Positions 1 to 15,705 of a stretch of 20,000 nt of DNA are shown in pieces. Location of the stretch: the IMG/VR virus record IMGVR_UViG_3300037497_000123; one strand, given 5' to 3'. The stretch's first letter is position 1; every line of letters starts with the position of its first letter. Made by a program: the position numbers and the translations under genes. This DNA is from an uncultured virus (IMG/VR IMGVR_UViG_3300037497_000123). Its lineage: Duplodnaviria > Heunggongvirae > Uroviricota > Caudoviricetes. Under the pieces are notes generated by a model. That model searched no databases, had not been told where the DNA came from, and saw only the letters and a program-made list of their open reading frames with translations.

Positions 1-10
1 GGCACAAGCA

Positions 11-3000
11 TTGGGGACACTTACGCCCGGGGTCGAACATACTGGGTATGATGTTGGAGCGCTTGGGTCCCATCTCACCAACTTTGCCAAGATTGATTTT
101 GCCGGTATCGCGGCCGGCATCAAGATCACCACGGATGCTCTCGCTTCCATGGAGGAGCGGTTGCGCAAAGCGACGGATAAGTCCTCAGGACAGACCGTTC
201 GGGCGGTCGCGGCCATAGAGAAGGAGCGGGTGAAGAAGGAGAAGGCCCTAATTGAGCAGGGAGCCAATGTTGCGACGGCACACGCGCGAGGAGTTGAAGC
301 GAATGCCAAGGTAGTCAATGCCGACAAGAAGTTGACGTATAGGGAACGGAAAGAGGAACAAAAGCGAAATGCGGCTACGCAGTTGGCTGTTGAGGAAGCT
401 CGCAAGGAGCGTCAGTTCGGGGTAGAAGAGCGCAGGCTCGAGCGGGAGCGTATGCGAGCCTCTATGAAGGCCCTTGCCACTACAGGGGCTGCGGGAGGTT
501 CACGTCTCGGACTGGCTCTGTCTCAGGCGGGCGTACCTCTGGGTATGGGCATGACCAATGCTCAGCTTGAGAAAGCGTTGGTGCAAAACGTGGCATCCAC
601 CGCCCGGCAACAGGCGAAGATCGCGGAATTGCGTGCTCAGAAAGCCCAGTATGCTGGGATAGGAATGTCGACGAGTGGCATTGATAGCCAGCTCATGGCC
701 CGAGGTGCGAGGCTGGACTACTCGGGAGAAGAGTTCCTGAATCTCTTGGGACATGCCGGTAAAATGATGCCGGAAACTTGGGGTAAGCGGTTCCCTGCAA
801 CCGAAGCGCTCCAGCAGTTTCAGAACATGCAGTACAAGCGAACCCGAATTGCAGCAGACCTGGCCAAAGTTCAGGAGTTGCGAGAGTCCACGATGGATCC
901 GCTTGTAGCTGCTTCCACACCTCTGTGGGCGGAAGCGCAAGCGGCTCGCCAGCGTCTGGGAGTTTTCGGAGGGGAGGCTCAGGCAGCGAAGCGGGCGGGA
1001 GAGCTTCGGGAAGAGCAGCACGCCATGGTCAACGGGTTAAAAGGTCAGGTCGGGAAGCACCACGAAATTGAAGCGTCGATGACACGCCAAGGTAACCTCT
1101 TCGATTTCATCGGAAACAAGATGAAGTCGATTATGGCCTATATGGGCATTGGGTTTGTGTTCTATCGGATGGCGGGGGGCATTGCGGCAGCGGTCAAGGA
1201 AGTAGTGGAGTTAGAGCATGTCATGGCGGAACTCCAGGGACTCATGCGCGGACAGTCCGTGGGGGACATGCTTGAGATCAAGAGTTCTATCCTAGAGACG
1301 GCGCGGCAATACGGTCTCGACATCAAGGGTGTGGCCGAGGTAGCTAAAGCGTTTACGCAACTTGGACTGTCTCCGGCGGAGGCCTCAAAAGAAACGCGAG
1401 CGGCCGCTCTTGGCGGCGCCGCCTTGAACATGACGCCGGAACAAACGGCGCAGATCATGATTGCCGCTCGGGAACTCACGGAAGGTGAGATGACCGGCCT
1501 AGACGTGATTGACCGAATTGCGGCAGTCATGCGCGTGTCAGAAACAACAGGGAAAGGTCGGCGGGTGTCTCCCGAGGACCTCACAACCGTGATTGAGCGC
1601 GTGGGTCCCCTCGCGCAGTCCTTGCAACCGAACAAGCTGGGGTCGGTGACGGCCATGGACATGCTGCTTGGTATGCAGTCCACGATTTTGACACGTACGC
1701 AGGGCGTGGGTGGAGCACAGACAGCAGCCGCATTGGCGTTTGCAATGTCCAGTATCATGCGGCCCTCAACCCAGAAGCAATTGCAGGGGAAGTTTGGAAT
1801 TGAGTTGGGTCGTCCGGAAGGTGGGCTACGGCCCATGGGGGACATTTTCCAATTGGTGGCGGAACGCTATAAGCAATACAAGTCCGAAGGCAGTGAGAAG
1901 GCCTCGGCTTTGCTGTCGGTGTTTGGTGGATCCCGTCAAGGTCGGCAGTTGGCGCCGTTGCTGGAGAATTTCGACGAGGCCATGCAAACCGCTATTGAAT
2001 CGTCGGAAGCGTTCGGGCAAGCGGAAAAGCGGGCGGCTCTTGAAGTAGACACCCTTCAGAATCGAATGAAGGGTTTGGGGAATGCATTCACTGGATTCAT
2101 GGATGCGCTGCTTCGTAACACCGGCATCATTGGGGGTACCCATGGGCCGTTGAGAACAGCCTCAAATGCGATTGCGGGCATGTCAAAGAATCCTCAGGCC
2201 TGGACCCTGGGAATAAGTGGCCTGAGTGTGGGGGCGTCATATGGTGGAGCAGCGTTGGCGCGCACAGCGGCATCGGCCATGGCGGCGGGTACTGGGCGGG
2301 CGGCAATGCTAGGCTTGGCCCGACTCTTAACGGGAATGTTGATTGGGTCTGGAATTGTTGCAGCGGTGATCGGGATTGCCTTGGCGGCTTTCGCAGCATA
2401 CAATTTTATCACTCGTGATCGGAAACCCACGGAACTGGAACTGGGACGCGAGCGGTTCGGGGAAACCGCCAAAACTCACAATTTGACTCCCGAAGAGTTA
2501 TCCCATCGGACGATAGCAGCGAATCGCCTGGCCCAGGAGCGCACGGGGGAATTGCTTGGAAAGTCAGGACTCTTCACTGGGGTCGACACGGACCCGGAAG
2601 CGCGAGCAACGTTCTCTCGGGTATTTTTGGGATTGATGGAAGGCGCAGTACCGGATTTGAAGAAAATTGCCGATCCGGCGGAGCGATTGAACCAAGCGTT
2701 TGGTTTGCTTCGGGAATCCATGGAGGAAATCGATCGGACCGCTCGTACCCCGCTGTTCCAGAGTGAGATTCTTGCGCGGATGGAGGCTCGTGGAAACATT
2801 ATTGCAGAGCGCACCAATTTTGAGACCCATTCTAAGACAAACCCTGACTATAAGCCATACACAGAGACGCTTCGGATCATTCAGCGGGGCGACCAAAACA
2901 AGTTGACGCAGTTAAAGCAGGGGCGTCTTTCGACTCGATCCGGGGCGGCAACGGCGGTGTCCGCTACCACCGAGTTGATGGCAAACGTCGCCAATACTCA

Positions 3001-5815
3001 GGGAGGCAAGCTTCCAGTGGTGGGTCTGGGGGGTGCGTGGAAGGATCGTATTCTGGAAGTGCTCATTGGGTATGGATCGCAGCGTTCCCAGCAGGAGGCC
3101 ATGAAGGGTATGGGAGGGTTGGTTGGGTATGACTATGCGGGTGCTCGACGGACCAGTTCTCGAGGCTTAGTCGAAGGTGTTGAACGTGCAATCGCAGAGG
3201 CCAAGGGAGATCTTATCCGGACGAAAGAGCAACTTGTGATGGCGGAATGGTCCTCGATGGATACAGAGGATTTGGCGGCGCGTACAGCGGACGCGGGGGA
3301 TCTCAAGAAATTGTCAGATGCGGACAGGGCCTTAGTTCTTAAGTCGGAGGCCAAAGCATCTTTTATATCCAAGATGGATAATGCTGAAGCGGTCATTGCA
3401 GCTTTTCAGAAGGACAAAACATTGTTGGGATCGTTGCCACCAGATCTCCAGAAACTGCTTGCGGAACTTGTTACAGGGCAATCCTTCAAGACCGAGGACG
3501 ACGCGACTAAACACTTGAGCAAGAGTTTAGGACTCATTTCTGGGATTCGGGCTGTTGCGAAAGAGGAAGCCGAGGAAGGAGAGCGGTTGGTGGTGGCGAA
3601 GGAACAGACCATCAAACTTCTTGAGAATGAGCGCGATTTGCATGTATCTATTTTGGAACATGTCCAGCGGCGAGCACAACTCAACCGAGAATCAGGAATT
3701 GCTCGAGCGGAGTTGGCTGGTGTTGGAGCTGGGTTTGGTAGTCGGCAATCCGACATCCTCTCGCGAGGAGCGGACGAAGTCAACCGCATTCGCCAACAGG
3801 GGTTGTACGAACGAGCGTTGATTGAAGCGGATCCGGAAATGTCGGATCCGCGAAAGGTGTTTTTGCAAGATCAAAGTCAGATCCAGGAAGACCGCAAAGC
3901 GCTGGTGGCGCAGGAAACTGCTAATCTGGATGCGGAACGCCTCCAAGTCATGGCCCAGATCGATGTGGAACGGGATCGTACTAACAACGCCAAAACAATG
4001 TTGCGGGGGGCCACGTCAGGATTGTCGGGGGCTTTGGGACAGAATTTCATGAGCGGATGGGCTGGCGGTCCAGCCCTAGAGACCATTACACGCCCACTAA
4101 TCTCGGGGTTGCAGCAAAAGTTGGCGGACAACTTCGTGGATTCGTGGTTTGGTCCAGATGGTATTTTCGGCGGGAAAATGATGGACTTGTTCTCTGTCGA
4201 CACGCTTCTGGACCAAGAAGTGGTGATGCGGCAAAGTTACTTGCGGAACTTAGGTCTTGCCCTTACGGGGGAAGTCACGGCCGTGCGTTCTGCTGCAAGT
4301 GGGGGGAGTCTTACGGCTGTAGCGTCTAACGTGTCGGTTGGAGAGGCACGAACCCGTATGGCGGAACTCGAGAACTCTAAGAGCTTGGCATTGCTACCAG
4401 GCGCGGCCGCGTTACCGGCGATCTCTTTGATAGGATCGGGATCGGGAACGGGCGTGGCGGGGCTTACAGCAGTGGCGGCAGCGGGTCCGATGGCATTTCG
4501 TCAAAAATATGAATCCGAGTTTGCCTACAGGCAGCGGGTGCGTCGAGAGTGGAAGGGGCAGCCGATACCGCCGGCTCAACGTGGTATGGGAGTGTTGGAT
4601 CCCGATGTTCGAGAAAAGATGGGACACCTGATGGCAGATGCAGCCAAACGTGGGTGGAATGTACAAATCCTGGAAACGCAGCGGACGCAAGAGCGTCAAG
4701 ATGCTATTTTTGCTAACACCAACAACACGAACACTCTTGACTCCAACCACCTCCTGGGCCGGGCTCTTGACATCAAGATAAACGGGCGTGATCTAACCAC
4801 GGAACAGCGACTTTGGTTGGACCAGCGGAATGTTGGCTTGATCGGACCTCCCGATGTTAGCAAACAGCCAAGGGGGTCCTTTGTTGATTTAAATCATATA
4901 CAGTTTCCGCTCTCAAGACGCGAGAACCGGCGACGTCGGCAAGCTTTGCGGGAGGGGCAGGCTGCGGTTGTAATGGGGCCGACTTTAGCACCCCTAGTTA
5001 CACCAACTCAAGATACTAGGTTCGGGTTCGGCACTTTGGGTGCAGGGTATAATTTCACTGCGGGGGCAAGCAGCATTGATCCGCTGATTAATCTGTCGGG
5101 AGGCCTTTCACAAATCTCCCCTCGCCAAATCGAGGACACTCTGCCGGGCATGCCGGGCATGCCGGGCATGTCGCCCTTGCCTGCAGCGGTGCTTCCTACA
5201 CTCACGAAATGGAAAACTCGGTCAGGGTTGATTCCGAAACCGACGGTGAAGGAGCGTTGGGCGCAAGTGGGAGACCAGGCGGCGATGATGGCGGCGTTGC
5301 AGGGCGGCATGTTGTTGGGGGGTGCCTTGAACTCGGATCGAGGTCTTGGTGGTATGAGAATGGGAAGGAACAAGGGGTACAACTACGCCTCCGAGGGTGG
5401 GGCCGTTGGAGGGATGCTTGGTAGTGTGTTTGGAGCACCAGGCGCCTTGGTAGGCAGCCTACTTGGGTCTATGCTTGGTGGATTGATTGCGAAGAAACGG
5501 CCGCGTGAGGACCCCCATGCGCAGTCCCTAGAAAAGATCGAGCGCAATACCCGCGAGAGTGTGACCGCGATCGAGAACCAGACGCGCATGATCGATTTGG
5601 GAAGCCGGATGCTTGGGGTGCCTACCACCTTCAAGTACCCCAGTTACGCGATCGCGGCCGGCGGTGGCGGTGGCGGTGGCACGCCGAACAGTGTCCAAAA
5701 TCACTTCGAAATCACCGTCAATGGAACGTCGGATGCCCGGCAGACGGCTGACCTTGTAGTGGCCCAGTTGCGGTCAGAACTGCGAGGGCAGGGCACCTTT
5801 ACTTCTCGGCGGTAG
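11..5815 (+). CDS. Phage tail tape measure protein with embedded M15-family peptidase; true start may lie upstream of the window
   Basis: 1934-aa Ala/Gly/Leu/Glu-rich helical protein. It has a TP901/PhageMin_Tail-like core (ELEHVMAELQGL...ILETARQYGLDIKGVAEVAKAFTQLG, ~1200-2100), hydrophobic segments (~2200-2410), a Gly-zipper region (GGAVGGMLGSVFGAPGALVGSLLG) and a typical TMP C-terminus (NHFEITVNGTSDARQTADLVVAQL). The frame is open from base 2 (gca caa gca ttg), so the TTG at 11 is not a proven start. Confidence 0.9.
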   Translation: MGTLTPGVEHTGYDVGALGSHLTNFAKIDFAGIAAGIKITTDALASMEERLRKATDKSSGQTVRAVAAIEKERVKKEKALIEQGANVATAHARGVEANAKVVNADKKLTYRERKEEQKRNAATQLAVEEARKERQFGVEERRLERERMRASMKALATTGAAGGSRLGLALSQAGVPLGMGMTNAQLEKALVQNVASTARQQAKIAELRAQKAQYAGIGMSTSGIDSQLMARGARLDYSGEEFLNLLGHAGKMMPETWGKRFPATEALQQFQNMQYKRTRIAADLAKVQELRESTMDPLVAASTPLWAEAQAARQRLGVFGGEAQAAKRAGELREEQHAMVNGLKGQVGKHHEIEASMTRQGNLFDFIGNKMKSIMAYMGIGFVFYRMAGGIAAAVKEVVELEHVMAELQGLMRGQSVGDMLEIKSSILETARQYGLDIKGVAEVAKAFTQLGLSPAEASKETRAAALGGAALNMTPEQTAQIMIAARELTEGEMTGLDVIDRIAAVMRVSETTGKGRRVSPEDLTTVIERVGPLAQSLQPNKLGSVTAMDMLLGMQSTILTRTQGVGGAQTAAALAFAMSSIMRPSTQKQLQGKFGIELGRPEGGLRPMGDIFQLVAERYKQYKSEGSEKASALLSVFGGSRQGRQLAPLLENFDEAMQTAIESSEAFGQAEKRAALEVDTLQNRMKGLGNAFTGFMDALLRNTGIIGGTHGPLRTASNAIAGMSKNPQAWTLGISGLSVGASYGGAALARTAASAMAAGTGRAAMLGLARLLTGMLIGSGIVAAVIGIALAAFAAYNFITRDRKPTELELGRERFGETAKTHNLTPEELSHRTIAANRLAQERTGELLGKSGLFTGVDTDPEARATFSRVFLGLMEGAVPDLKKIADPAERLNQAFGLLRESMEEIDRTARTPLFQSEILARMEARGNIIAERTNFETHSKTNPDYKPYTETLRIIQRGDQNKLTQLKQGRLSTRSGAATAVSATTELMANVANTQGGKLPVVGLGGAWKDRILEVLIGYGSQRSQQEAMKGMGGLVGYDYAGARRTSSRGLVEGVERAIAEAKGDLIRTKEQLVMAEWSSMDTEDLAARTADAGDLKKLSDADRALVLKSEAKASFISKMDNAEAVIAAFQKDKTLLGSLPPDLQKLLAELVTGQSFKTEDDATKHLSKSLGLISGIRAVAKEEAEEGERLVVAKEQTIKLLENERDLHVSILEHVQRRAQLNRESGIARAELAGVGAGFGSRQSDILSRGADEVNRIRQQGLYERALIEADPEMSDPRKVFLQDQSQIQEDRKALVAQETANLDAERLQVMAQIDVERDRTNNAKTMLRGATSGLSGALGQNFMSGWAGGPALETITRPLISGLQQKLADNFVDSWFGPDGIFGGKMMDLFSVDTLLDQEVVMRQSYLRNLGLALTGEVTAVRSAASGGSLTAVASNVSVGEARTRMAELENSKSLALLPGAAALPAISLIGSGSGTGVAGLTAVAAAGPMAFRQKYESEFAYRQRVRREWKGQPIPPAQRGMGVLDPDVREKMGHLMADAAKRGWNVQILETQRTQERQDAIFANTNNTNTLDSNHLLGRALDIKINGRDLTTEQRLWLDQRNVGLIGPPDVSKQPRGSFVDLNHIQFPLSRRENRRRRQALREGQAAVVMGPTLAPLVTPTQDTRFGFGTLGAGYNFTAGASSIDPLINLSGGLSQISPRQIEDTLPGMPGMPGMSPLPAAVLPTLTKWKTRSGLIPKPTVKERWAQVGDQAAMMAALQGGMLLGGALNSDRGLGGMRMGRNKGYNYASEGGAVGGMLGSVFGAPGALVGSLLGSMLGGLIAKKRPREDPHAQSLEKIERNTRESVTAIENQTRMIDLGSRMLGVPTTFKYPSYAIAAGGGGGGGTPNSVQNHFEITVNGTSDARQTADLVVAQLRSELRGQGTFTSRR
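4586..4906 (+). other. Peptidase M15-like (L-Ala-D-Glu endopeptidase, CwlK/Ply500-type) domain within the TMP
   Basis: Motifs occur in the correct order: LDPDVREKM, ETQRTQERQ (R-T-x3-Q), SNHLLGRALD (S-x-H-x2-G-x-A-x-D; His 4748, Asp 4769) and DLNHIQF (D-x2-H; His 4895). Confidence 0.85.
5142..5170 (+). repeat. 9-bp tandem repeat (tgccgggca x3) encoding PGMPGMPGM in the TMP
   Basis: Three exact copies at 5142, 5151 and 5160. Confidence 0.95.
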
Positions 5816-5912
5816 CTCCTGCGGTAGACCTCCTGCTCCAGCGACTCATTCGTAGGGGAGTGAGCATGGGGAGGTCGGAGCGATAGCTCCATCCATAGCA
5901 CCCTCTGGGTGC
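5809..5912 (+). promoter_or_regulatory. Multi-hairpin structured intergenic region upstream of the terminator (candidate cis-regulatory RNA)
   Basis: Stems: gacctcc 5827-33 / ggaggtc 5870-76, enclosing tgctc 5834-38 / gagca 5862-66; ggagc-gata-gctcc 5877-90; gcaccc-tct-gggtgc 5898-5912. The stems are seen directly; any function is inferred. Confidence 0.45.
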
Positions 5913-5917
5913 AAGTC

Positions 5918-5948
5918 AGGGCACCCAATACGGGTGCCCTTTTGTTTT
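5918..5948 (+). terminator. Rho-independent terminator after the TMP
   Basis: Perfect 9-bp stem agggcaccc (5918-26), loop aatac, gggtgccct (5932-40), followed by tttgtttt. Confidence 0.85.
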
Positions 5949-5961
5949 GGAGACCGAAGAA

Positions 5962-6126
5962 ATGTCCTGCTATGACTGTCAGAAAAGCCTGCCACGAACT
6001 TCAGAAGAAGACTACGAGGTGTTGTTGAATCCGGGCGGGGTATGTGCGATTTGTCGGCAACGAGAGACTCTAAAAGCAGCCGCTGCTTATTTGGAACAAG
6101 CTTCAGCTAAACGAGGGCCTACCTAA
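5962..6126 (+). CDS. 54-aa four-Cys mini-protein, apparent internally deleted endonuclease VII derivative (possibly a pseudogene remnant)
   Basis: Own translation: MSCYDCQKSLPRTSEEDYEVLLNPGGVCAICRQRETLKAAAAYLEQASAKRGPT*. GGAG at 5949-52 lies 9 nt before the ATG, and the stop overlaps the next start (TAATG). Three blocks are collinear with the 6815..7309 protein. Confidence 0.7.
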   Translation: MSCYDCQKSLPRTSEEDYEVLLNPGGVCAICRQRETLKAAAAYLEQASAKRGPT

Positions 6127-6812
6127 TGGCTTTCTCCGTATCATCTTCTGATGTTTCGGGTGCACGCATATCGGGGTACGACGAGCAACTAACTATTGCG
6201 CCGGAGGAAGTGGATTATCCACAGACGCCGGCCGGTCGACGCGTGGAAACCACTAGTGGTTCCGTGATCAAACAGACCCCAGCAACGGATCCTCGCATTC
6301 GGGCATGGAGTTGGAGTGGATTGCCGAACTACACGGTCGCTCCGCGATACATCCAAATGATTCATCGACTGGAAGCGTTGGTGTCCACTACTAGGCGTAC
6401 TCGGAATCTAAGTCCTTGGGTGTATTTGAAAGAAGATCTTACGGATGAATTTCGGTTATGGCATTTCGATTCGGGGACGGCCAGCTCAGTAGCGGCCGGC
6501 ACGCTCACGGATTCTGGAAAGACCTGGACCACGAACGCTCTAGCAAACAGCGTGGTGGAAATCGTATCAGGCACGGGTGCGGGACAACGTCGAACGGTCA
6601 CCAGCAACACGGGCACCGTATTGAGTGTGTCCCCGGACTGGACCACACAGCCGAGTAGTGCTGTCTATAACGTGCAGTGGGGAGAATCCACGTGGGTGCG
6701 CTGTCGGGTGTTGTCCGTGGCCAAGAAGCCGGTTTCACGTGCGGGGGTGTCGTTTGATATGGTGCGCATGGAATTCGTGGTTGATGATCCAGCTTGGAAT
6801 TTTTTGGGATAG
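6126..6812 (+). CDS. Putative distal tail (Dit-position) protein with an inserted ~70-aa module
   Basis: First structural-size gene after the TMP, 228 aa. N-terminal RRVETTSGSVIKQ...RAWSWSG and C-terminal VRMEFV resemble Dit/minor tail beta-strands. The insert is at 6471-6674. The assignment rests mainly on synteny. Confidence 0.6.
   Translation: MAFSVSSSDVSGARISGYDEQLTIAPEEVDYPQTPAGRRVETTSGSVIKQTPATDPRIRAWSWSGLPNYTVAPRYIQMIHRLEALVSTTRRTRNLSPWVYLKEDLTDEFRLWHFDSGTASSVAAGTLTDSGKTWTTNALANSVVEIVSGTGAGQRRTVTSNTGTVLSVSPDWTTQPSSAVYNVQWGESTWVRCRVLSVAKKPVSRAGVSFDMVRMEFVVDDPAWNFLG
6471..6674 (+). repeat. ~70-aa Gly/Thr-rich module B copy 1 (in the Dit-like gene)
   Basis: SGTASSVAAGTLTDSGKTW...VEIVSGTGAGQRRTV...VSPDWTTQPSSAVYNV. 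Confidence 0.85.
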
Positions 6813-6814
6813 CC

Positions 6815-7309
6815 ATGCCTGACACTGAAATTGACACCAAATATTGCACTCTTTGTAATGAAGAGTTTCCAAACACTCGAGAATATTTCGGATTCCAACG
6901 GGAGAAATTGGAAGCTAGATGTCAACAGTGCAAAAGAACGCTTCTCAAGGCTTGGCGGAAAAAGAATCCCCTGCTTTATGGTGCTCAAAAGAAGCGCCAT
7001 AAAACTAGGAATCCTCGGATGTACAAGAATTCGATGTTGAAACATTACTATGGAATTACCATCGAAGTTTACGAAGAAATGTTACGGCAACAAAATGGAG
7101 TATGTGCCATCTGCAAGAATCCCGAGAGAGTTCGCAAAGCTGGGACTCAGGAATCAAAGGCGTTATCCGTGGACCACGATCATCGTACTGGAAGGATTCG
7201 CGGGTTGCTTTGCACCAATTGCAATACAGCCCTAGGGCTGCTTTTTGAGAACACTACGATGTGTTTTGCGGTTGTTGAGTACATCCGATTTCACATGCAG
7301 AGAGCTTAA
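6815..7309 (+). CDS. Endonuclease VII-family HNH (putative homing) endonuclease, 164 aa
   Basis: YGITIEVYEEMLRQQNGVCAIC ... LSVDHDHRTGRIRGLLCTNCNTALG matches the recombination endonuclease VII signature, with an extra N-terminal CTLC/CQQC zinc finger. The ATG at 6815 lies 2 nt after the upstream TAG. AT-rich (22/60 GC at 6841-6900, 19/60 at 7021-7080, versus 33/60 at 7561-7620). Confidence 0.9.
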   Translation: MPDTEIDTKYCTLCNEEFPNTREYFGFQREKLEARCQQCKRTLLKAWRKKNPLLYGAQKKRHKTRNPRMYKNSMLKHYYGITIEVYEEMLRQQNGVCAICKNPERVRKAGTQESKALSVDHDHRTGRIRGLLCTNCNTALGLLFENTTMCFAVVEYIRFHMQRA

Positions 7310-10300
7310 TGGCAATCTGGACAGCGAAACGAGAAGCAAGTTACGTCCATTCTGTAGATTCGTGGGACAGTCCGTTCACGCCACTTGAGACAGACGTGGC
7401 GTCGTATGGGCTGCGCGTAGATGTCGTGGAACCGCATGCAAGCTACGCCTGGACCACGGGGTTTCTCACGAATGTGAAGGCGGCTTCCGCCTCCGCATTG
7501 TTTGGGGTGTTCACGGATACCACGAAATCCACACGGCTTATCCTCGATGGGCGGGCTCCAAACCTTGTGGAATACTGGAGTGCTGGCACTCCCAATTGGT
7601 ATGGGGGAAGTCAGCGGGGTCGGGTGGCTCTGCACTGGCGCGGGTTCATTAGGCCGGCGGCCGGTCGCGGTTGGTTTGATACGGCCAGCTCGGTCACCCT
7701 GTCCCTCGCATTTGCGGGGCAGGGGTTTGTGCGGTGCACCAAGACCATTAGTGCCACGACAACGGACTTGCAGATCAACTCCGCCAATGGGTACCAACTG
7801 TCGGAGCAAGATTGGATCGATCAGGGCTATCGATTCACCTCCACGGTGACGCTGGCGCCGGGAGATTCGATCGATGTGTATTACTTGCAAGACAAGGAAA
7901 CTTGGGGCGGCCTCACTGCGAAAGTGGTATCGGGGTCTACTCAAACCAATGCCTTGGCGGCCGCCGGACCGGTGCTGGGTTGTGGGCTGTTTGACACAGG
8001 AACACAGCCTCCCAAGAAGTCCTGGAAGCATGTGCAGGACATGCAGGTAGTTGTGGACGCTGGGCAGGCATCGCAAGCCACCTTAAGTATTCCACTAGTC
8101 AATCCTGCGGTAGGCAAACATGATGGGTTTGGGTGGGAGTGGCGCCAAGACAATACGGATGATCCGGGCTACCTAGCACTCTGGGATGGGGGTGTCGAGC
8201 AGTTCACGATTCGTCGCGGGCGTCTGATTCGGGTGCGCGCGGGCTATGCGGACGCGGACAACACACCGTTGTTCACAGATGCCTTTTCAGACCTCGATGG
8301 CACACTCCTGCAGAACCACACCGCTCATGGCATGGCGTGGAGTAAGCACACATCGTACTCGGGAGGAAGTGCAGAAGTGTCGGCGACGGGTCGCATTTTT
8401 GCGGCAACGGTCACGGCTCTCTACACCAACAATTTGTACCTTCCCTCGGCCGATTATGAAGTGCGAGCCGATTTTGTGCCGCGCACCTCTACCACTGATC
8501 AAACGGGACTTGTGGGGCGGTGTTCGACTAGTGCCGATACGATGTACATGCTTCGGTATCACGGAGGTTTGGGAAGTTGGGACTTGCTCAAGTTCGTGGC
8601 GGGAACGGCCACCACACTAGGGTCTTACTCCCAATCGCTCACGGTGGATCAGGCCTACGCGATTCGGTTGCGTATGGTGGGGCAAACCATCAGCGCTTTC
8701 GTGGATGGGGTTGAACGCATTACGGCCACGGATTCAGCAATTACAACGGCTGGAGTAGCGGGAGTGCGTTTTGCTGGGGGCGCGGGCACGGATACGACCG
8801 GCCAACATCTTGACAATTTCCAAGTGTGGGCGGTTGCCGGTGATCAACAGGAAACGATCATCACGGGGATCCTTCAGGATATTCCGAAGCCGAAGGATGG
8901 GAAGGCACAGGTTCGTGTCATTGGATTTGAACATCGCTTGATCGAGGCCCGTAATCGACTCGAGCCGGATCCCGTGAGCTACATGACCTTTGGGTACCGA
9001 AAGATCACTGGGATTTCGGAGCCGGTCTATGGAGTGACTGCCTACGACTTCTGGACGATCGAGAACGCGGTCGCCGATTCGGCATATCGGTCGGGAATCG
9101 ACGCGTCTCGCCTACGACAACCCCTCAAGATTCGGCAAAGCGACGGTTCCTACACCACGGTGAACTTCTCCGGCACGTCGGTGGCCAAGGGGACGTGGAG
9201 TTCCAGCGGGGTCGTTTTGTATGGCCCGGCGGCAGCCTGTGGAGACGGGATCACTACGGTGGCGGCATGGCATACGGATAGTGGAGTACCGGGCGCTTAT
9301 GTGCAGGTGGACCTCGGGGTTGGGATGCTCGTGGACACGTGTAGCATTTGGAAAACATCAGCTTCCGCCTACGCGGGTGTTTACAAGGTTCGGTATTCTG
9401 GGGATGGGGCTACCTGGACGGACGTGGCTACCGGCATCAATCCCACCGGTTCGGGTGCCAACACCGTGACGTTTGCGGCTGTGAGTGCTCGATACTGGAG
9501 GATTGAACTTACGAACACACCAGGAGGCGGGGATTCGCTAAGTGAAGTGCAGTTCAATCTTGTCGGTTCCAATTTCCTCAAGTTCCGGGCGCGGTCGGTG
9601 GCCGGCACTCCCCTGACTCTTGAGCACGCCATTCACTATGGCAATGTGGGAACGCTGTTTACGGAAGTCAAACCCCTCGATGACCCTTATTTGTTCACAC
9701 CGGAATCTCGGGACGATTCCTGGTCTCGGGTCATGGAAATTGCGGATCGATATGGCTACGATGCTCGATTTGATGCTGTAGGAGATTTCGTGTTGGCATC
9801 GCGAGCTAATGCGGCCTATGCATATGATACGGGCATCGGGGATTCTGTGCAAGCAAGCACTCGCAAAACTCGCCCGTCAGCCTACAAGGGCACCTACATC
9901 GAATGGGCGGTAGCACCAACGATCACGAAACAAGTTCGCGGAGCTCGGATTGACGTGTCATTGCCTCGAGGTGCGGGGCTTGGCTCCTGGGCTTCTATTA
10001 CTGTGACGCGCGCGTCTACGGGTGCAACTGTAGGCACGCGCACGGCGGTCGATGTAGCCACTGGAGTGACTTCCGATGTGTACTACTACGATTATCGCAG
10101 TAGCACGTCCGGAGCGAACGCGACCATTCTCACACTGTATGTGGGGGATTTTGATACATACAACGTCACGTTTGTAGGCACCGGAGCTACGACGAGGCGC
10201 CTCGATACCCTGTTTGTGTACCACAAAGATCCGCTTGGCATTGTAAGCTCGGAAGGCCCGGCGTGGTCGGGAGTTGCCTACGCGCTCACGACAGCAGAGA

Positions 10301-13300
10301 ACGCCCTCACTGTCGATGCGCAGGATGCCGGCGACGACATGCGCAACAGTGTGTTGGTGGTCGGCCAGCGGAAAGCGACCGTCACGGATTCGGAGAAGTT
10401 CAAGACCAACCCAAACAACCCAGATCCAGAGTTTATCGTGGAACTGGCGGTGGACGCGGCCTCGATTTCGGATCCCACGGCCAAGAACTACGTGGGTATG
10501 CGGCGGGAAGCGGTCATCATTGACCCCAAGATTACGGACCAGGATTATGCGGCGTACCTAGCGCGCACAGCGGTCTATCGTTATCGGACGCCTCGGCCGC
10601 CGGCGGACATTACACACACCTTGATTGCCGAACTTAATCAACGGGTGTGCTTGTCCGTGGCCGAAGTCACGTACCAGTCCGTGAGAGCCACGACGAATTT
10701 GTGGGTAACGGGGTATACACACACTGTGGGTGTAGACGGTCATTTCGAGACCGCGATTCGAACTGCTGCCTGGCCGGAGTTCCCAAGCTATGAGCCACGG
10801 GCCGACATCGATATTGATGCGGATTTCGGCAGCTCCCCCATTGCGAATGTGGAAGTCCGGTACACGGGATGTTCGAACATGGCCCAAGTCAATTTGTCGG
10901 ATACAGGGGTGGTGAAAGATTCGGTAGACATGGAGGATATTGTGTCCGTGGCCGGCGTGGCGGTATCGGCGGCAAGTCCTCCTGATCCGGAATTTCTCAG
11001 CTTGTCCACGAGTCCGTGGCCTCCGGTTCCCGGCACACTCTCCATTTTCCCGAGTGCAGGAGGGTTTACTGGTGGAGTCATAGAAGACTATGGCCCCTAC
11101 GAGTGGAATGGTGCGCTTCCGAAAACCTCATTTCGGCTCCAGGGTACCGCAAAACAGCTTTACTCTGTGTCAGTGCTGTTGTTCAACGGGACAGAAGTTT
11201 GGACAAAGTTGCCGTATTTCACGGGGACGTTGGGGCCTGACGGAGAGGAGAACTGGCAGGTTACATATACCGTAAATGCAACTCCCGACAAGATTGTACA
11301 AATCTCGACATCGGGAACGGCGACGAGCGGAACAGCCACGTCGATTACGAATGGTGGGGCGAATTTCCCAGGTCTTGGAGTAACGGCGACGAACTGGACG
11401 GTTCGCATTACCGCAGGTACTGGGGCTGGGCAAGTGCGTACGGTGGCAGGACTCACGGGAATCTCGACAATTCGGGTAACTACGCCCTGGAATGTGACTC
11501 CCGATAGTACGTCAGTGTACACCGTGGCGCTCGGAGAAGTGACCTACGATGATGAAGAAAACCTGCTCACAGTCAGGGTCAATCCGATTCCTGGAACGTT
11601 TATCTCCACGAAGATTCGGGTCAACTATGACAAGTACGCATCACGGTTCGGTCGAAAAGCCCGAACAAACTCTCCATACCACCACTTTGTAAACATCGAT
11701 CACCGGGATGCCAACCGGAAGGTCTATTTGCCGTGGCAACAGGGGGATGGCACGAGTGTGTACAAGCGGGAAACTGCAGTCACCGGTTACGATGTCAAAT
11801 ACCGGAAACTGGGATTGGTGGATTCTGCGGGCACATATGTCTCGACCTACGGTAATGGGTCTCCGTTCTATGATGTCACCACGAGTGAACTCGGGTATCT
11901 CGCTTCCCTGTCGTTTGATGCCCTAGTGTCGGGGCAGTTCCGAATTTCGGTGTGCAGTGTGTATGACAACACCGTGGTTGCTTATCTCACAGAACCGACA
12001 GCGGACCCCAAGGAACCCGAGGCCCATTGGCAATACCTCACTGCGGGATCGGCCCGGTCCTTCAATTGGGATGGCGTGGATCAGGTGGGAGCATGGAATC
12101 GGCGCCAGTCTGAAGAGTATGCGTCGTTGTCGCAGGGATGGTTTGAAGACGAAGAGAAACAGGTGATTGGGGCCGGTTGGTATGTGTGGAATCGGGAACG
12201 GGAGGGCGGCGGCTGGGCACGACTTGCCCTCATTGCAGATGAGCGGGATTCGAACACGGGTGTTCCCGTGTATGGGCAGGGCACCTATGCCGCGTGGTAC
12301 TTCAAGGTTGAATGTCGTAATGACACTTTGGGTGCCGTTTGGGAACTCGAGTCCAGTAAGAACGATCTCAAGAAGCAACTGCCTCGGGTAGTCAAGACTC
12401 TCAGGCCAGGGGTGGCTGATATTGTGCCCACCTACACCACCAACAACGTGGTGCAGGTGTCCGATGTGTTCGCTGGATCGCCGGGCACTTTGTTGTCGGC
12501 ACATTCACCAGAGACGGGCGGCTCGTGGTTCAAGAACTTCCTCCAAGGCGCCGGCGACGACCTCGAAATTTCGTCAGCAAATCGGTTGCGTAGAAATGCG
12601 TCAAACACCACGCGCTGTGCGTACTACAACTCGGCTCCTCTCAATTCCGACTACTCGGTTCAAGCTGTTGTGCGGAGAATAGACGCGATAAACATGAATG
12701 TGGGCGTTACCGCACGGGGAGCTACCACCTTGGTGGATACGTATTACTGGTTCTGTCATGTAGGCAGCACGAACACTTGGGAACTGATTCGTCAGGTTGC
12801 AGGCACCCAAACCGTTCTAGGCACCTACGCCTCCGCGATGTCGATTGGGCAGGACTACACCATGCGCCTCGACGTAGTGGGCAGTTCCATCCGGGCCTTC
12901 ATTGACGGAGTCGAGCGTATCACGGCCACTGACTCTGTTCTTGTGTCTGGGGTAGCCGGTGTCTGCTTTTCTGCTGCGAGTGGCGGTAGCAGTTCGGATA
13001 CGACCACCATTCACATGGACAATTTTCAGGTTACGCGACTGACCGTGTCGGCAGTGGTGTACACTCACATGCCGAAGCCGACTCAACTGGAACTTGAGGT
13101 AGCAGATTGGATTGATACGGTAGGGTTTGATCCGAGCAATGCAGAGCATCTGTCCAACGAGGCCCACTGGCAGGCACCATGGTATGATCGGAATTTGGCA
13201 TTAGCGGGTCCGATCACTCGAGACACGTTCACAGATACCGACAACGTGTTGCTCTCGGCGCATACGGCAGATGACGGATCAACGTGGACATCGCACCCGT

Positions 13301-15705
13301 CCTCTACGGGAACGGTTCAAATCTCCAATCAGAATCGCATCCATAACAGCGGTGTTACCGTGGGGGTGTACTACTCCTCAGGGGTGCCCGTCTCTGCGGA
13401 TTACTCGGTAGCCTGTACTTTGCACGCGAAAGATGCAACGGGGATAACAGGTGTGTTGGGACGCATGGATACGTCGGCAACGACGTTTTACGCGGCGCGG
13501 TACAGTTACTCCACGGTCAAGTGGGAGTTGTACAAGTTTGTCGCAGGGACAGCAACCCTGTTGGGAGACTTTGCTCAAACAATCTCGATCGGTGTGGACT
13601 ACGCGCTTCGCCTAGAGATGCGCGGAACATCAATCAAGTTGTTTGTGGACGGTGCGGAAAGAGTTGCTGCTACTGATTCTGCTATTACGGCAGTGGGACG
13701 ACCCGGAGTTCGGTTTCTTAGCGCGACGGGAACTGACACCACGGGATTGCATCTCGACAACTTCCACGCAACTAATGCAAATACGTATGAGGGGTTGCTT
13801 GGAAATCAGAAGCCGGTGCGGCTTCGAGTTCGGGCAGTGCCTCGTGCAGGAGCGTTGTGGACGGGGCGAGAAGGAGACCAGGCGGTCAAACTGACTCGGC
13901 ATGTTCACCTCAAGGCCCTGGTCCACGATCAGTTTGTGGTAGGTGAAGGGTCTGTGTGGCCCAATACGACGACGGAACAGCGTTCGGTGTACACACGCCG
14001 CCTGCATAACGATGATCACACCGTCACGTTCGTGGATCAAGGGTGGCGGGCAGCACGCACACTTAAGAATTCAACGACGTCGGGATCAACTGAGTGGGTG
14101 TTCCGCCCCCAGGACTTCAAGAAAAACTTCCGGGGGATTGAAAATGAACCCTTGCAGTTTGGGGATTACTTGCAGCTCGATGAAGTCCCAAAGTGGGAGC
14201 AGCATCGGACGGTTGCGAGTGCACACTCCCGGCTCAATCTCGCGTTCGCGGCCTATGTGTTCTACTGCAGTGTGTATGGGGTAGATCGCTCTGGCCGACG
14301 AGTGTGGGCGGTCAATCGCTCGTTCATGGATCAGTCAAAGATCCCAAACAATGCGTACGCCCATTGGTGGGACCCCGCGAGTGTTACAACGCCCTTTGCG
14401 TACTCGACGTCCTCAACGTTCAAAGCGGACTTGGTTTTGAACCCGGTTCGCCATCAGCGGCGGTCGGTGGTGTGCCGGCAGTGGACGGATGACCCCACCA
14501 TTGTCCTAACCACACCGGAGCGAACGTGGATTACGGACCAAACCACTCGGTATGGGTTGACCGCGTTGGGCGTGAAGTTTTTGCGCCATCGGTGGCAGGA
14601 CCACGAGGTCACGAGCTCCACGCTCAATGGCACTGCGTGGGACGTGCTTGATACGGACAACTACTCGGCGTGGAGTCTTGCATCGGCTCGGGCGCAGTTG
14701 CCGGTGGGATTCACGGCACTGACTCGAGCGCTGGGGCCTGGGGGTACTGCAACGCCCACAACGAGGCTTGGAAACAACGTGGCGGGGGACCACTCCTGGA
14801 CGTGGGAATCGGATCCCTGTTGGGTGCCGTGTGTGACTCGAGATTGGCATCCGTACTTCTATGTACCCCCGATGCCGGATGCTGTAGATGAAGCGGGTCT
14901 TCTAGCGGCCTCGATTGTCGCGAATCGGTATGCAATAGTGGATTTCAGACAAAGGACTAATGCTCCTGCCGGTGGATTCAACGGACGAGACGTTGCGGCA
15001 AGTCCTACATGGTTTAGTTGGGCACGGGATAACTCACGGGCCTACGATAGCGCGACCAGCGGGAAGGTGCGATTTGATATGTCGCTCGGAAGTCCTGCCA
15101 AGAAAACCGATCCAGGAACAGCGACGGCACTCAAGACGGGGGTTGGTGGCGTAGAAGCAGACTCTCTCGACTATGTTCGCCAGGATGACACACTGCATTT
15201 TGAGGATTTGCGAGGGCTGTTCTCGCGAGGCCCTCGGCCGGGAGAGTTAGTCAAGAAAATCACGGCAATTCGACCCTACTACATCAACCAATTTTCATAT
15301 GACCAGATGTTGGTACGGCCGGCACGCTTCCAGGGAACGGGAGTGGAACTTCCGAACTACGCGGTTCGAGTAGCAGAGTGGTTCCGCATTGGATTTCGAT
15401 CAGAATACCTCTGGGAATCTTCGACATTGTTTCCGGTCAAACTACGGGGACAAGAGCGGATCGATGCAGTGAATGCATGGCAAGCCCGGTTTATTGGCCG
15501 AGAGTCTGCGTTGGGATCCCAGGAAGTCCTGTATGACCCCGGTGCTTGGGTAGGGTGGAAGGATGATTCCTTCACGTCGTTTTACCAAAGCAATGTGTTT
15601 GAAATGGGCTACATGCTGTTCGATATCGGTCCTCGACGCGGTTCTACAACGGAGTTGTATTTCCACATGACGTTGATAAACGAGCGACGGAAGGTGCCTG
15701 TCTAA
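7309..15705 (+). CDS. Giant multidomain baseplate hub/Tal-like tail protein (2798 aa) with carbohydrate-binding-like inserts
   Basis: Hub-like motifs occur in order: ASQATLSI, GRLIRVRAGY...IITGILQD, WSRVMEIADRYGYDARFDAVGDFVL, MRNSVLVVG, YVGMRREAVIIDPKITDQDYAAYLA, LWVTGYTHTV (~8030-10770). It also holds three ConA-like repeats, an F5/8C domain and a FlgD-Ig-like segment. The start overlaps the upstream stop (TAATG). Confidence 0.8.
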   Translation: MAIWTAKREASYVHSVDSWDSPFTPLETDVASYGLRVDVVEPHASYAWTTGFLTNVKAASASALFGVFTDTTKSTRLILDGRAPNLVEYWSAGTPNWYGGSQRGRVALHWRGFIRPAAGRGWFDTASSVTLSLAFAGQGFVRCTKTISATTTDLQINSANGYQLSEQDWIDQGYRFTSTVTLAPGDSIDVYYLQDKETWGGLTAKVVSGSTQTNALAAAGPVLGCGLFDTGTQPPKKSWKHVQDMQVVVDAGQASQATLSIPLVNPAVGKHDGFGWEWRQDNTDDPGYLALWDGGVEQFTIRRGRLIRVRAGYADADNTPLFTDAFSDLDGTLLQNHTAHGMAWSKHTSYSGGSAEVSATGRIFAATVTALYTNNLYLPSADYEVRADFVPRTSTTDQTGLVGRCSTSADTMYMLRYHGGLGSWDLLKFVAGTATTLGSYSQSLTVDQAYAIRLRMVGQTISAFVDGVERITATDSAITTAGVAGVRFAGGAGTDTTGQHLDNFQVWAVAGDQQETIITGILQDIPKPKDGKAQVRVIGFEHRLIEARNRLEPDPVSYMTFGYRKITGISEPVYGVTAYDFWTIENAVADSAYRSGIDASRLRQPLKIRQSDGSYTTVNFSGTSVAKGTWSSSGVVLYGPAAACGDGITTVAAWHTDSGVPGAYVQVDLGVGMLVDTCSIWKTSASAYAGVYKVRYSGDGATWTDVATGINPTGSGANTVTFAAVSARYWRIELTNTPGGGDSLSEVQFNLVGSNFLKFRARSVAGTPLTLEHAIHYGNVGTLFTEVKPLDDPYLFTPESRDDSWSRVMEIADRYGYDARFDAVGDFVLASRANAAYAYDTGIGDSVQASTRKTRPSAYKGTYIEWAVAPTITKQVRGARIDVSLPRGAGLGSWASITVTRASTGATVGTRTAVDVATGVTSDVYYYDYRSSTSGANATILTLYVGDFDTYNVTFVGTGATTRRLDTLFVYHKDPLGIVSSEGPAWSGVAYALTTAENALTVDAQDAGDDMRNSVLVVGQRKATVTDSEKFKTNPNNPDPEFIVELAVDAASISDPTAKNYVGMRREAVIIDPKITDQDYAAYLARTAVYRYRTPRPPADITHTLIAELNQRVCLSVAEVTYQSVRATTNLWVTGYTHTVGVDGHFETAIRTAAWPEFPSYEPRADIDIDADFGSSPIANVEVRYTGCSNMAQVNLSDTGVVKDSVDMEDIVSVAGVAVSAASPPDPEFLSLSTSPWPPVPGTLSIFPSAGGFTGGVIEDYGPYEWNGALPKTSFRLQGTAKQLYSVSVLLFNGTEVWTKLPYFTGTLGPDGEENWQVTYTVNATPDKIVQISTSGTATSGTATSITNGGANFPGLGVTATNWTVRITAGTGAGQVRTVAGLTGISTIRVTTPWNVTPDSTSVYTVALGEVTYDDEENLLTVRVNPIPGTFISTKIRVNYDKYASRFGRKARTNSPYHHFVNIDHRDANRKVYLPWQQGDGTSVYKRETAVTGYDVKYRKLGLVDSAGTYVSTYGNGSPFYDVTTSELGYLASLSFDALVSGQFRISVCSVYDNTVVAYLTEPTADPKEPEAHWQYLTAGSARSFNWDGVDQVGAWNRRQSEEYASLSQGWFEDEEKQVIGAGWYVWNREREGGGWARLALIADERDSNTGVPVYGQGTYAAWYFKVECRNDTLGAVWELESSKNDLKKQLPRVVKTLRPGVADIVPTYTTNNVVQVSDVFAGSPGTLLSAHSPETGGSWFKNFLQGAGDDLEISSANRLRRNASNTTRCAYYNSAPLNSDYSVQAVVRRIDAINMNVGVTARGATTLVDTYYWFCHVGSTNTWELIRQVAGTQTVLGTYASAMSIGQDYTMRLDVVGSSIRAFIDGVERITATDSVLVSGVAGVCFSAASGGSSSDTTTIHMDNFQVTRLTVSAVVYTHMPKPTQLELEVADWIDTVGFDPSNAEHLSNEAHWQAPWYDRNLALAGPITRDTFTDTDNVLLSAHTADDGSTWTSHPSSTGTVQISNQNRIHNSGVTVGVYYSSGVPVSADYSVACTLHAKDATGITGVLGRMDTSATTFYAARYSYSTVKWELYKFVAGTATLLGDFAQTISIGVDYALRLEMRGTSIKLFVDGAERVAATDSAITAVGRPGVRFLSATGTDTTGLHLDNFHATNANTYEGLLGNQKPVRLRVRAVPRAGALWTGREGDQAVKLTRHVHLKALVHDQFVVGEGSVWPNTTTEQRSVYTRRLHNDDHTVTFVDQGWRAARTLKNSTTSGSTEWVFRPQDFKKNFRGIENEPLQFGDYLQLDEVPKWEQHRTVASAHSRLNLAFAAYVFYCSVYGVDRSGRRVWAVNRSFMDQSKIPNNAYAHWWDPASVTTPFAYSTSSTFKADLVLNPVRHQRRSVVCRQWTDDPTIVLTTPERTWITDQTTRYGLTALGVKFLRHRWQDHEVTSSTLNGTAWDVLDTDNYSAWSLASARAQLPVGFTALTRALGPGGTATPTTRLGNNVAGDHSWTWESDPCWVPCVTRDWHPYFYVPPMPDAVDEAGLLAASIVANRYAIVDFRQRTNAPAGGFNGRDVAASPTWFSWARDNSRAYDSATSGKVRFDMSLGSPAKKTDPGTATALKTGVGGVEADSLDYVRQDDTLHFEDLRGLFSRGPRPGELVKKITAIRPYYINQFSYDQMLVRPARFQGTGVELPNYAVRVAEWFRIGFRSEYLWESSTLFPVKLRGQERIDAVNAWQARFIGRESALGSQEVLYDPGAWVGWKDDSFTSFYQSNVFEMGYMLFDIGPRRGSTTELYFHMTLINERRKVPV
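8269..8826 (+). repeat. ConA/LamG/DUF1080-like beta-sandwich, module A copy 1
   Basis: DAFSDLDGTLLQNH...SADYEV...GLVGR...WDLLKFVAGTATTLGSY...YAIRLRMVGQTISAFVDGVERITATDSAITTAGVAGVRF...HLDNFQV. Confidence 0.8.
9169..9555 (+). other. F5/8 type C (discoidin/CBM32-like) domain
   Basis: ACGDG..AAWHT...YVQVDLG...YKVRYSGDGATWTDV...VTFAAVSARYWRIELT...LSEVQF is the classic F5/8C pattern. Confidence 0.85.
11311..11526 (+). repeat. Module B copy 2 (in the 2798-aa protein)
   Basis: SGTATSGTATSITNGGANF...WTVRITAGTGAGQVRTVAGLTG...TPWNVTPDSTSVYTV. Confidence 0.85.
11902..12186 (+). other. FlgD-type Ig-like segment
   Basis: LSFDALVSGQFRISVCSVYDNTVVAYL...AGSARSFNWDGVDQVG...VIGAGWY resembles the FlgD_ig signature (WDGxDxxG ... 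GxY). Confidence 0.5.
12451..13032 (+). repeat. Module A copy 2
   Basis: DVFAGSPGTLLSAH...SDYSV...GVTAR...WELIRQVAGTQTVLGTY...YTMRLDVVGSSIRAFIDGVERITATDS...HMDNFQV. Confidence 0.8.
13213..13770 (+). repeat. Module A copy 3
   Basis: DTFTDTDNVLLSAH...SADYSV...GVLGR...WELYKFVAGTATLLGDF...YALRLEMRGTSIKLFVDGAERVAATDSAIT...GLHLDNFHA. Confidence 0.8.

Follow-up and report, generated by a model that had tools for sequence, protein, structure and literature searches.

A 54-aa ORF in the tail-type gene row of an uncultured virus of the Caudoviricetes (IMG/VR record IMGVR_UViG_3300037497_000123) appears, on sequence comparisons that support this well, to be descended from an endonuclease VII (Endo VII)-type nuclease gene; equally well supported is a loss of approx. 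38 profile positions between its first CxxC motif and its last helix. The same comparisons support the view that this gene lost its catalytic core through an internal deletion that kept the reading frame. We consider it fairly probable that this ORF is a functionless relic of a free-standing homing endonuclease gene, which is held in place by linkage.

As read from its ORFs, the + strand of the window (i.e., the whole stretch of 20,000 nucleotides that was analyzed) carries a tail-type gene row, in which the small ORF, encoding the protein P0001, lies between a long upstream ORF and the gene for P0002, followed by the genes for P0003 and for two large proteins (Table 1). The 2798-aa protein matched the PHROG tail protein family phrog_4978 over residues 322-498 (E = 4.1e-22) and also has an F5/8 type C (galactose-binding-like) domain at residues 640-738, while no family match was found for the ORF of >1431 aa that starts at 15705. 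As the long upstream ORF had no Pfam match, the name "tape measure" is a positional label only for this ORF. Residues 1534-1593 of the same ORF (window 2-5815) matched PHROG ferredoxin and endolysin families (E = 6e-6 to 4e-4), perhaps through a shared small domain.

Table 1. Features of the tail-type gene row around the small ORF (positions in the window)
Feature	Position	Strand	Description
Long upstream ORF	stops at 5815	+	1937 aa; enters from the left end of the window
Untranslated gap			146 nt, from the upstream ORF to the small ORF
Terminator-like hairpin	5918..5948	+	9-bp stem with 7 G-C pairs, 5-nt loop, then TTTTGTTTT
GGAG, Shine-Dalgarno-like motif	5949..5952	+	9 nt 5' of the ATG of the small ORF
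Small ORF (P0001)	5962..6126	+	54 aa, ATG start; putative Endo VII-type relic
P0002 start region	6112..6128	+	GAGGG 9 nt before the ATG, within the last codons of the putative relic; TAATG
P0002	6126..6812	+	228 aa; tail-module protein between the putative relic and the intact nuclease gene
P0003	6815..7309	+	164 aa; Endo VII family
Large tail ORF	7309..15705	+	2798 aa
Last ORF of the window	starts at 15705, on to 20000	+	>1431 aa

A first-pass annotation of this DNA had described the small ORF as having a ribosome-binding site and a TAATG overlap with the next gene, and both were found at 5962-6126: the GGAG precedes the ATG by 9 nt, and the last A of the TAA (6124-6126) is the first letter of the P0002 ATG at 6126, giving TAATG at 6124-6128. 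The RNA around the start of the small ORF is predicted to be unstructured (46-nt fold, -3.4 kcal/mol; 178 of 200 shuffles folded at least as well). Further upstream, the strong terminator-like hairpin at 5918-5948 and its T-run lie within the tail gene row, past the end of the long upstream ORF and directly 5' of the GGAG of the small ORF. A scan of positions 5000-8000 found no sigma-70-like promoter, and there was no Rfam match within 5000-8000. A 23-nt, 74% complementary match between the hairpin and positions 6605-6627 was considered and dropped.

The Endo VII family was represented by IMG/VR relatives of P0003, taken from the best 80 of 172 matching loci (81 ORFs, including that of locus L001). 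A 35-sequence profile comprised P0003 and 34 non-identical ORFs of 120-200 aa with a CxxC in the first 30 residues, and an alignment of 32 sequences, A2, comprised P0003 and 31 of these 34 ORFs, three near-duplicates having been dropped. When compared to the A2 profile with hhalign, P0001 matched with 93.1% probability (E = 3.2e-7) over residues 14-36, i.e., the central block of the protein; the kinship with Endo VII that the first-pass annotation had put forward is thus upheld at the level of a family profile, with a Pfam match that stays below threshold (PF02945 as best match, E = 0.04; 14.3 bits as compared to a gathering cut-off of 23.6). Among PHROGs, the best match was also an Endo VII family (phrog_2914, E = 0.011), and BLASTP aligned residues 19-42 of P0001 with P0003 (10 of 24 identities, E = 6e-5).

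On the 35-sequence profile, HMMER aligned P0001 in collinear fashion, with residues 14-38 on nodes 67-92 and residues 34-50 on nodes 126-142, and the whole-protein score was reached by none of 3000 composition-preserving shuffles. When fragments were shuffled against this profile, the scores of the central and C-terminal fragments were likewise not reached (0/3000 for both), while the score of the N-terminal 16 residues was marginal, as 65 of 3000 shuffles did as well. In a chain alignment, in which long profile skips were allowed, residues 3-13 fell on nodes 6-16, residues 14-35 on nodes 71-93 and residues 36-51 on nodes 132-147; the chain score of P0001 was 49.9, as compared to a mean of 19.1 and a maximum of 30.6 among the shuffles (0/300 reached the score of P0001). 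Block-by-block shuffling in the chain alignment gave 0 of 2000 for the central block, 0 of 2000 for the C-terminal block, and 82 of 2000 as good for the N-terminal block (residues 3-13), which in this alignment falls on the N-terminal zinc ribbon, at its first knuckle. Of the three collinear blocks originally claimed, the central and C-terminal ones therefore stand, but the N-terminal one is marginal. The central block corresponds to the first helix of the family and its first CxxC knuckle (C28, C31), and the C-terminal block (residues approx. 36-51) maps to the last helix of the family; the residues retained in P0001 are still close to the Endo VII family consensus.

A different alignment of the N-terminal part was obtained when P0001 was compared by BLASTP to the full-length Endo VII of L001: residues 4-36 align as one contiguous stretch that is broken only by a gap of 3 residues (17/37 identities, E = 7e-7). 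If this alignment holds, the first Cys pair does not derive from a zinc-ribbon knuckle. As the N-terminal block is marginal and the contiguous alignment to L001 is a rival to it, neither the first of the two proposed deletions nor the inheritance of the first Cys pair is established, and the earlier idea that two deletions joined the halves of two zinc sites may not hold.

The losses in P0001 are concentrated in the part of the protein that cuts DNA in the family. Besides the start Met, A2 has 12 invariant columns, and only 3 of these are kept in P0001 (both first-knuckle Cys and the last-helix Tyr); the 9 missing ones are D120, H121, H123, G126, R129, L131, C133, C136 and N137. P0001 contains zero histidines, and the DHDH motif, the second CxxC and the catalytic Asn are all absent; from the zinc site of two CxxC pairs that flank the catalytic motif, P0001 has the first pair (C28/C31) only. 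We also scored the 50 stop-to-stop segments in the six frames of 5600-6500 and found no Endo VII remnants in other frames (the next best segment, with E = 0.042, is on the minus strand inside the long upstream ORF), which agrees with the first-pass statement that the DHDH site and the second CxxC are gone. Since it has no His, no DHDH, no second Cys pair and no catalytic Asn, P0001 cannot be a His-Me finger nuclease; with a sub-threshold score, no catalytic residues and half a zinc site, it also falls outside PF02945.

P0003, on the other hand, is an intact member of the Endo VII family (PF02945, E = 7.8e-21; phrog_2633, E = 9.3e-32) that keeps all invariant Cys, Asp, His and Asn columns of A2 and has T4 endonuclease VII and Hpy99I as its nearest solved structures; an extra four-Cys ribbon is found at its N-terminus. 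The P0003 gene is located 700 bp downstream of the small ORF and has a TAATG overlap with the 2798-aa tail gene. Its family and composition suggest that it is probably a free-standing homing endonuclease gene, putatively active.

The composition of the small ORF is foreign to the tail genes and close to that of P0003. The GC content is 0.497 for the small ORF and 0.436 for P0003, as compared to 0.547-0.564 for the tail ORFs, and GC3 is 0.42 and 0.45, respectively, as compared to 0.56-0.61 for the four tail ORFs. A codon-usage score trained on the four tail ORFs was -0.116 for the small ORF, -0.105 for P0003 and 0.214 for P0002; windows of 54 codons from the three long tail ORFs had a mean score of 0.253 (sd 0.10; 5th percentile 0.092). 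Among the three frames of the small ORF, its own frame had the best codon-usage score. Foreign codon usage and an intact sister gene across the same tail gene both speak for the homing endonuclease remnant that the first-pass annotation had suggested. P0001 and P0003 share 42% identity over 24 residues, and the best nucleotide match is 17 nt at 82%, so that neither gene is a recent copy of the other. We dropped an 11-nt identity (CGAAGAAATGT) shared by the start of the small ORF and the "YEEML" codons of P0003, as we estimate that approximately this much is expected by chance in 1.7 kb. In L002, a distant relative, the P0002 homologue is followed by a 10-bp gap and then by the large tail protein, and the nuclease gene is absent. 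These comparisons suggest that a single tail gene is flanked on both sides by an inserted Endo VII-type gene, the one intact and the other gutted.

We propose that a full Endo VII-type (HNH / His-Me finger) gene once stood between the long upstream tail ORF and P0002. An in-frame internal deletion removed its DHDH, second zinc CxxC and catalytic Asn, so that the product cannot cut DNA. The remnant would have no selected protein function of its own, and its frame would still be open since the loss was in frame and, as we suppose, recent. That the relic has not been wholly deleted may be due to its last codons, which hold the ribosome-binding site and the start of P0002; as GAGGG and ATG lie inside these codons, a deletion of the full relic must spare or recreate them. 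The relic may further ride along when the P0003 gene drives gene conversion of the region, and it may well be translated, which would bring ribosomes to the TAATG junction as a by-product. Neutrality of the relic is assumed here; the open, well-started frame and the consensus residues fit recent decay or continuing purifying selection alike. The open frame is in itself weak evidence, because the chance that one or two deletions happen to be in frame is 1/3 to 1/9.

One alternative, possible though rather doubtful in our assessment, is that the small ORF is kept for coupling: its sequence would be irrelevant, and its frame would be kept open so that ribosomes, having entered at its accessible start beyond the 146-nt gap and the terminator-like hairpin, reach the TAATG and open a hairpin over the Shine-Dalgarno sequence of P0002, with only in-frame deletions of the dead nuclease gene being tolerated. 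The TAATG overlap, the loss of the core in frame and the unstructured start region of the small ORF itself are in line with this, and the GAGGG of P0002 is indeed covered by a predicted 7-bp hairpin (-10.3 kcal/mol), being paired in both the minimum-energy and the centroid folds; however, 20 of 200 shuffled sequences gave folds of equal or greater stability, so that this hairpin is not unusual, and P0002 has in this GAGGG a well-spaced site of its own. The terminator-like hairpin and the 146-nt gap also set the small ORF apart from the upstream ORF, and because both intervene, ribosomes of the upstream ORF cannot carry through. Against coupling, the TAATG junction recurs at 7307-7311 (P0003 and the 2798-aa ORF) and at 15705 (the 2798-aa ORF and the next ORF). 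Since the same junction is found at 7309 and 15705, the overlap represents an operon habit rather than the special link to the next gene that had been read into it, and it may be just inherited; the chance probability of in-frame deletions likewise makes the in-frame loss weak as an argument for selection. Translational coupling of the small ORF and P0002, as predicted from the sequence, is nevertheless plausible, and in the reading as a functionless relic it would be a by-product.

The 228-aa P0002 had initially been named "Dit", for which we found no backing: the protein has no Pfam match and no PHROG match, and its model (pLDDT 42.8) is too poor for a fold search, so that its nearest language-model neighbour, Phage_min_tail (0.94), is the sole lead. 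The middle of P0002 (residues approx. 105-185) is formed by a module of approx. 70 residues with the motif EIVSGTGAGQRR and without a Pfam family. Up to seven copies of this module occur in phage proteins of 868-879 aa (L114, L115, L123-L126), and single or multiple copies are also found in many further large proteins of tail regions.

As a single query, P0002 found no IMG/VR relative. A search with a P0002 alignment yielded 15 IMG/VR loci, 27 metagenome contigs and 5 genome contigs, and nearly all of these 47 loci match just the module of approx. 70 residues; full-length relatives are limited to L002 and L003. Relatives of P0002 at 50-57% identity exist (P0006-P0011). An Endo VII ORF was found in none of the 47 loci, and a P0001-like stretch at E < 1 in none of the 33 loci scanned. 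In L003, the one distant relative (38% identity) that shows the site of the small ORF, the approx. 113-146 bp before the P0002 homologue are without an Endo VII-like or other separate ORF. In L002 (positions 1-120), the first approx. 36 residues of the ORF with the P0002 homologue are unlike P0002 and resemble what we take to be the start of an unrelated cellular enzyme, and this contig may be chimeric. IMG/VR relatives were found neither for the C-terminus of the upstream ORF nor for the N-terminus of the 2798-aa protein, and blastn searches with 4500-8500 and 5816-6130 gave no match among the phage records.

It is unlikely, in our view, that the relic has been exapted as a zinc-binding protein of 54 aa, with a new Cys pair at the N-terminus in place of the lost second knuckle, and that the protein or its translation serves the phage; in such a case, its role may be that of a ribosome relay for P0002 or of a modulator of P0003. 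That Cys 3, 6, 28 and 31 bind zinc and the mini-protein has a function of its own (DNA binding, regulation, or modulation or poisoning of the full-length Endo VII dimer by way of the retained helices) we regard as quite improbable. The four Cys are arranged as two knuckles, CxxC-x21-CxxC, a spacing that is compatible with a zinc ribbon, and the intact start site, the open frame and the consensus residues retained in both helices would fit such a protein. The single-sequence AlphaFold model of P0001 is moderately confident (pLDDT 69.6) and has a long helix at residues 29-50; it gave 1 row only in Foldseek PDB (E = 8.8) and a best Z of 3.4 in the VIA-align wide fold search. The language-model neighbours of P0001 are unnamed clusters of proteins of approx. 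55 aa, one of them auto-named GATA-type (0.94; 133-137 of 256 shared features), and represent a lead only. Complex prediction for P0003 and P0001 gave a score of 0.00 in both runs, which, being without controls, speaks neither for nor against binding.

What stands against an exapted mini-protein is that its homologues are full nucleases only, with no sign of a conserved family. No homologues of P0001 were found among proteins of 29-95 aa or among those of 96-2000 aa. A HMMER search against 1.84 billion representatives revealed no short homologue; its 2 matches, a multi-repeat LRR/Roc-COR protein and a Calx-beta protein, were both rejected as repeat artefacts. The IMG/VR search with P0001 found 1 locus, L001, with its full-length Endo VII of 249 aa, and tblastn of P0001 over 50,697 phage records yielded 20 records, none with an E value below 2; 4 of them are annotated as endonuclease VII. 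In addition, the codon usage of the small ORF is still foreign, the inheritance or conservation of its first Cys pair is not established, and truncated HNH relics are, as described in PMC12724721, common and usually read as decay.

We consider it very unlikely that P0001 is a small Cys-rich ORF of other descent, or not a gene, and that its short CxxC and Ala-rich helical stretches resemble Endo VII by chance. The Pfam score below the gathering score, an aligned core of just approx. 23 residues and the chance-level N-terminal block would agree with a fortuitous likeness, but the hhalign E value and the two independent collinear blocks, which no shuffle matched, argue against it, as do the composition shared with the neighbouring nuclease gene and the position of Endo VII at the top of the Pfam, PHROG and phage-genome tblastn results.

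Reads from four sequencing runs, in the form of contigs, were compared to the window. In run X1, one contig covers 5829-8500 with 0 differences and spans the small ORF and both of its junctions, although this support is not independent because X1 may be the source sample of the window. Run X3, from another study, shows depth in the bins 5840-5973 and 5974-6107, and no variants, indels or joints are listed for any of the four runs. For X2 and X4, the contigs from RNA libraries map to parts of 4789-5834 and 6541-8425, and none of them covers the small ORF; no conclusion on its expression follows from this. In the best-matching run, the Logan unitigs break at 5815-5828. A 35-bp intergenic stretch (5832-5866), which occurs once in the window, recurs with 3 differences in another contig of 7,850 bp in runs X1 and X3, and may be a repeated intergenic element of the phage or of a relative. 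The unitig break and this recurrence could be taken to favor a mis-join or collapsed region that made the short ORF, an artefact that the first-pass annotation had thought read mapping could reveal, but with the X1 contig free of differences and the X3 depth in these two bins, such an origin is barely credible.

Homing endonuclease genes are expected to invade, to decay and to be lost, and decayed copies in phages are common and rarely dissected. A relic of the kind proposed here would be a tidy example, with the core excised in frame, both ends kept, the codon usage foreign and the start signals of P0002 placed in its 3' end, and would illustrate that a dead selfish gene is hard to delete once the expression signals of a host gene sit inside it. 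If the short form were conserved in relatives, it would represent a documented step from parasite to host gene, and if the exaptation reading were true, a selfish nuclease gene would have been caught in the act of becoming a host gene.

Among known systems, the nearest parallel is I-TevIII/mobE of phage T4, where an internal deletion inactivates an HNH-type gene beside an intact HNH gene that flanks the same essential gene. As reported in PMC2790892, I-TevIII, a defunct HNH homing endonuclease in the nrdB intron, has been inactivated by an internal deletion and yet shows a high frequency of inheritance, since the intact mobE next to it drives gene conversion of the region and mobilises I-TevIII in trans; mobE also holds signals that nrdB needs, and these select against the deletion of mobE. 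In contrast to the T4 genes, both genes described here are free-standing with no intron and belong to the Endo VII (PF02945) branch, and they flank a tail gene rather than nrdB; mobilisation in trans would apply here by analogy. A further parallel is provided by Skunavirus (lactococcal) phages, for which PMC12724721 reports that 56 of 268 HNH genes in 89 genomes are partially deleted remnants. These truncated genes, like the relic, are described as remnants of once complete genes, with a variable presence and often at recurrent insertion sites; they represent other HNH subfamilies (I-HmuI-like and others) and were identified through BLASTP matches to complete genes of close relatives, whereas the deletion proposed for the relic takes exactly the catalytic core and keeps both ends.

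Proteins with the Endo VII motif include a proven homing endonuclease family, according to PMC6083498. With PF02945, to which T4 gp49 and the F-CphI / DHHRN homing endonucleases belong, the relic shares the first helix, the CxxC knuckle and the C-terminal helix, but it is without the catalytic His, Asp and Asn and has half a zinc site, and would be a derivative rather than a working member. The bracketing of one tail gene by two nuclease-derived ORFs also resembles the HEG-islands described in PMC10448857, in which homing endonuclease genes bracket essential phage genes and small ORFs of unclear function lie within; these islands, however, are defined there by high nucleotide identity between otherwise dissimilar phages, and their nucleases (T5orf172 and IPA-HNH) are of other classes than those found here. 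For ICP1, an in-frame internal deletion of a homing endonuclease gene via recombination between repeats is reported (PMC10448857; preprint PMC10055350). Overall, as far as the evidence goes, the relic represents a further example of a known fate of selfish nuclease genes rather than a new kind of protein.
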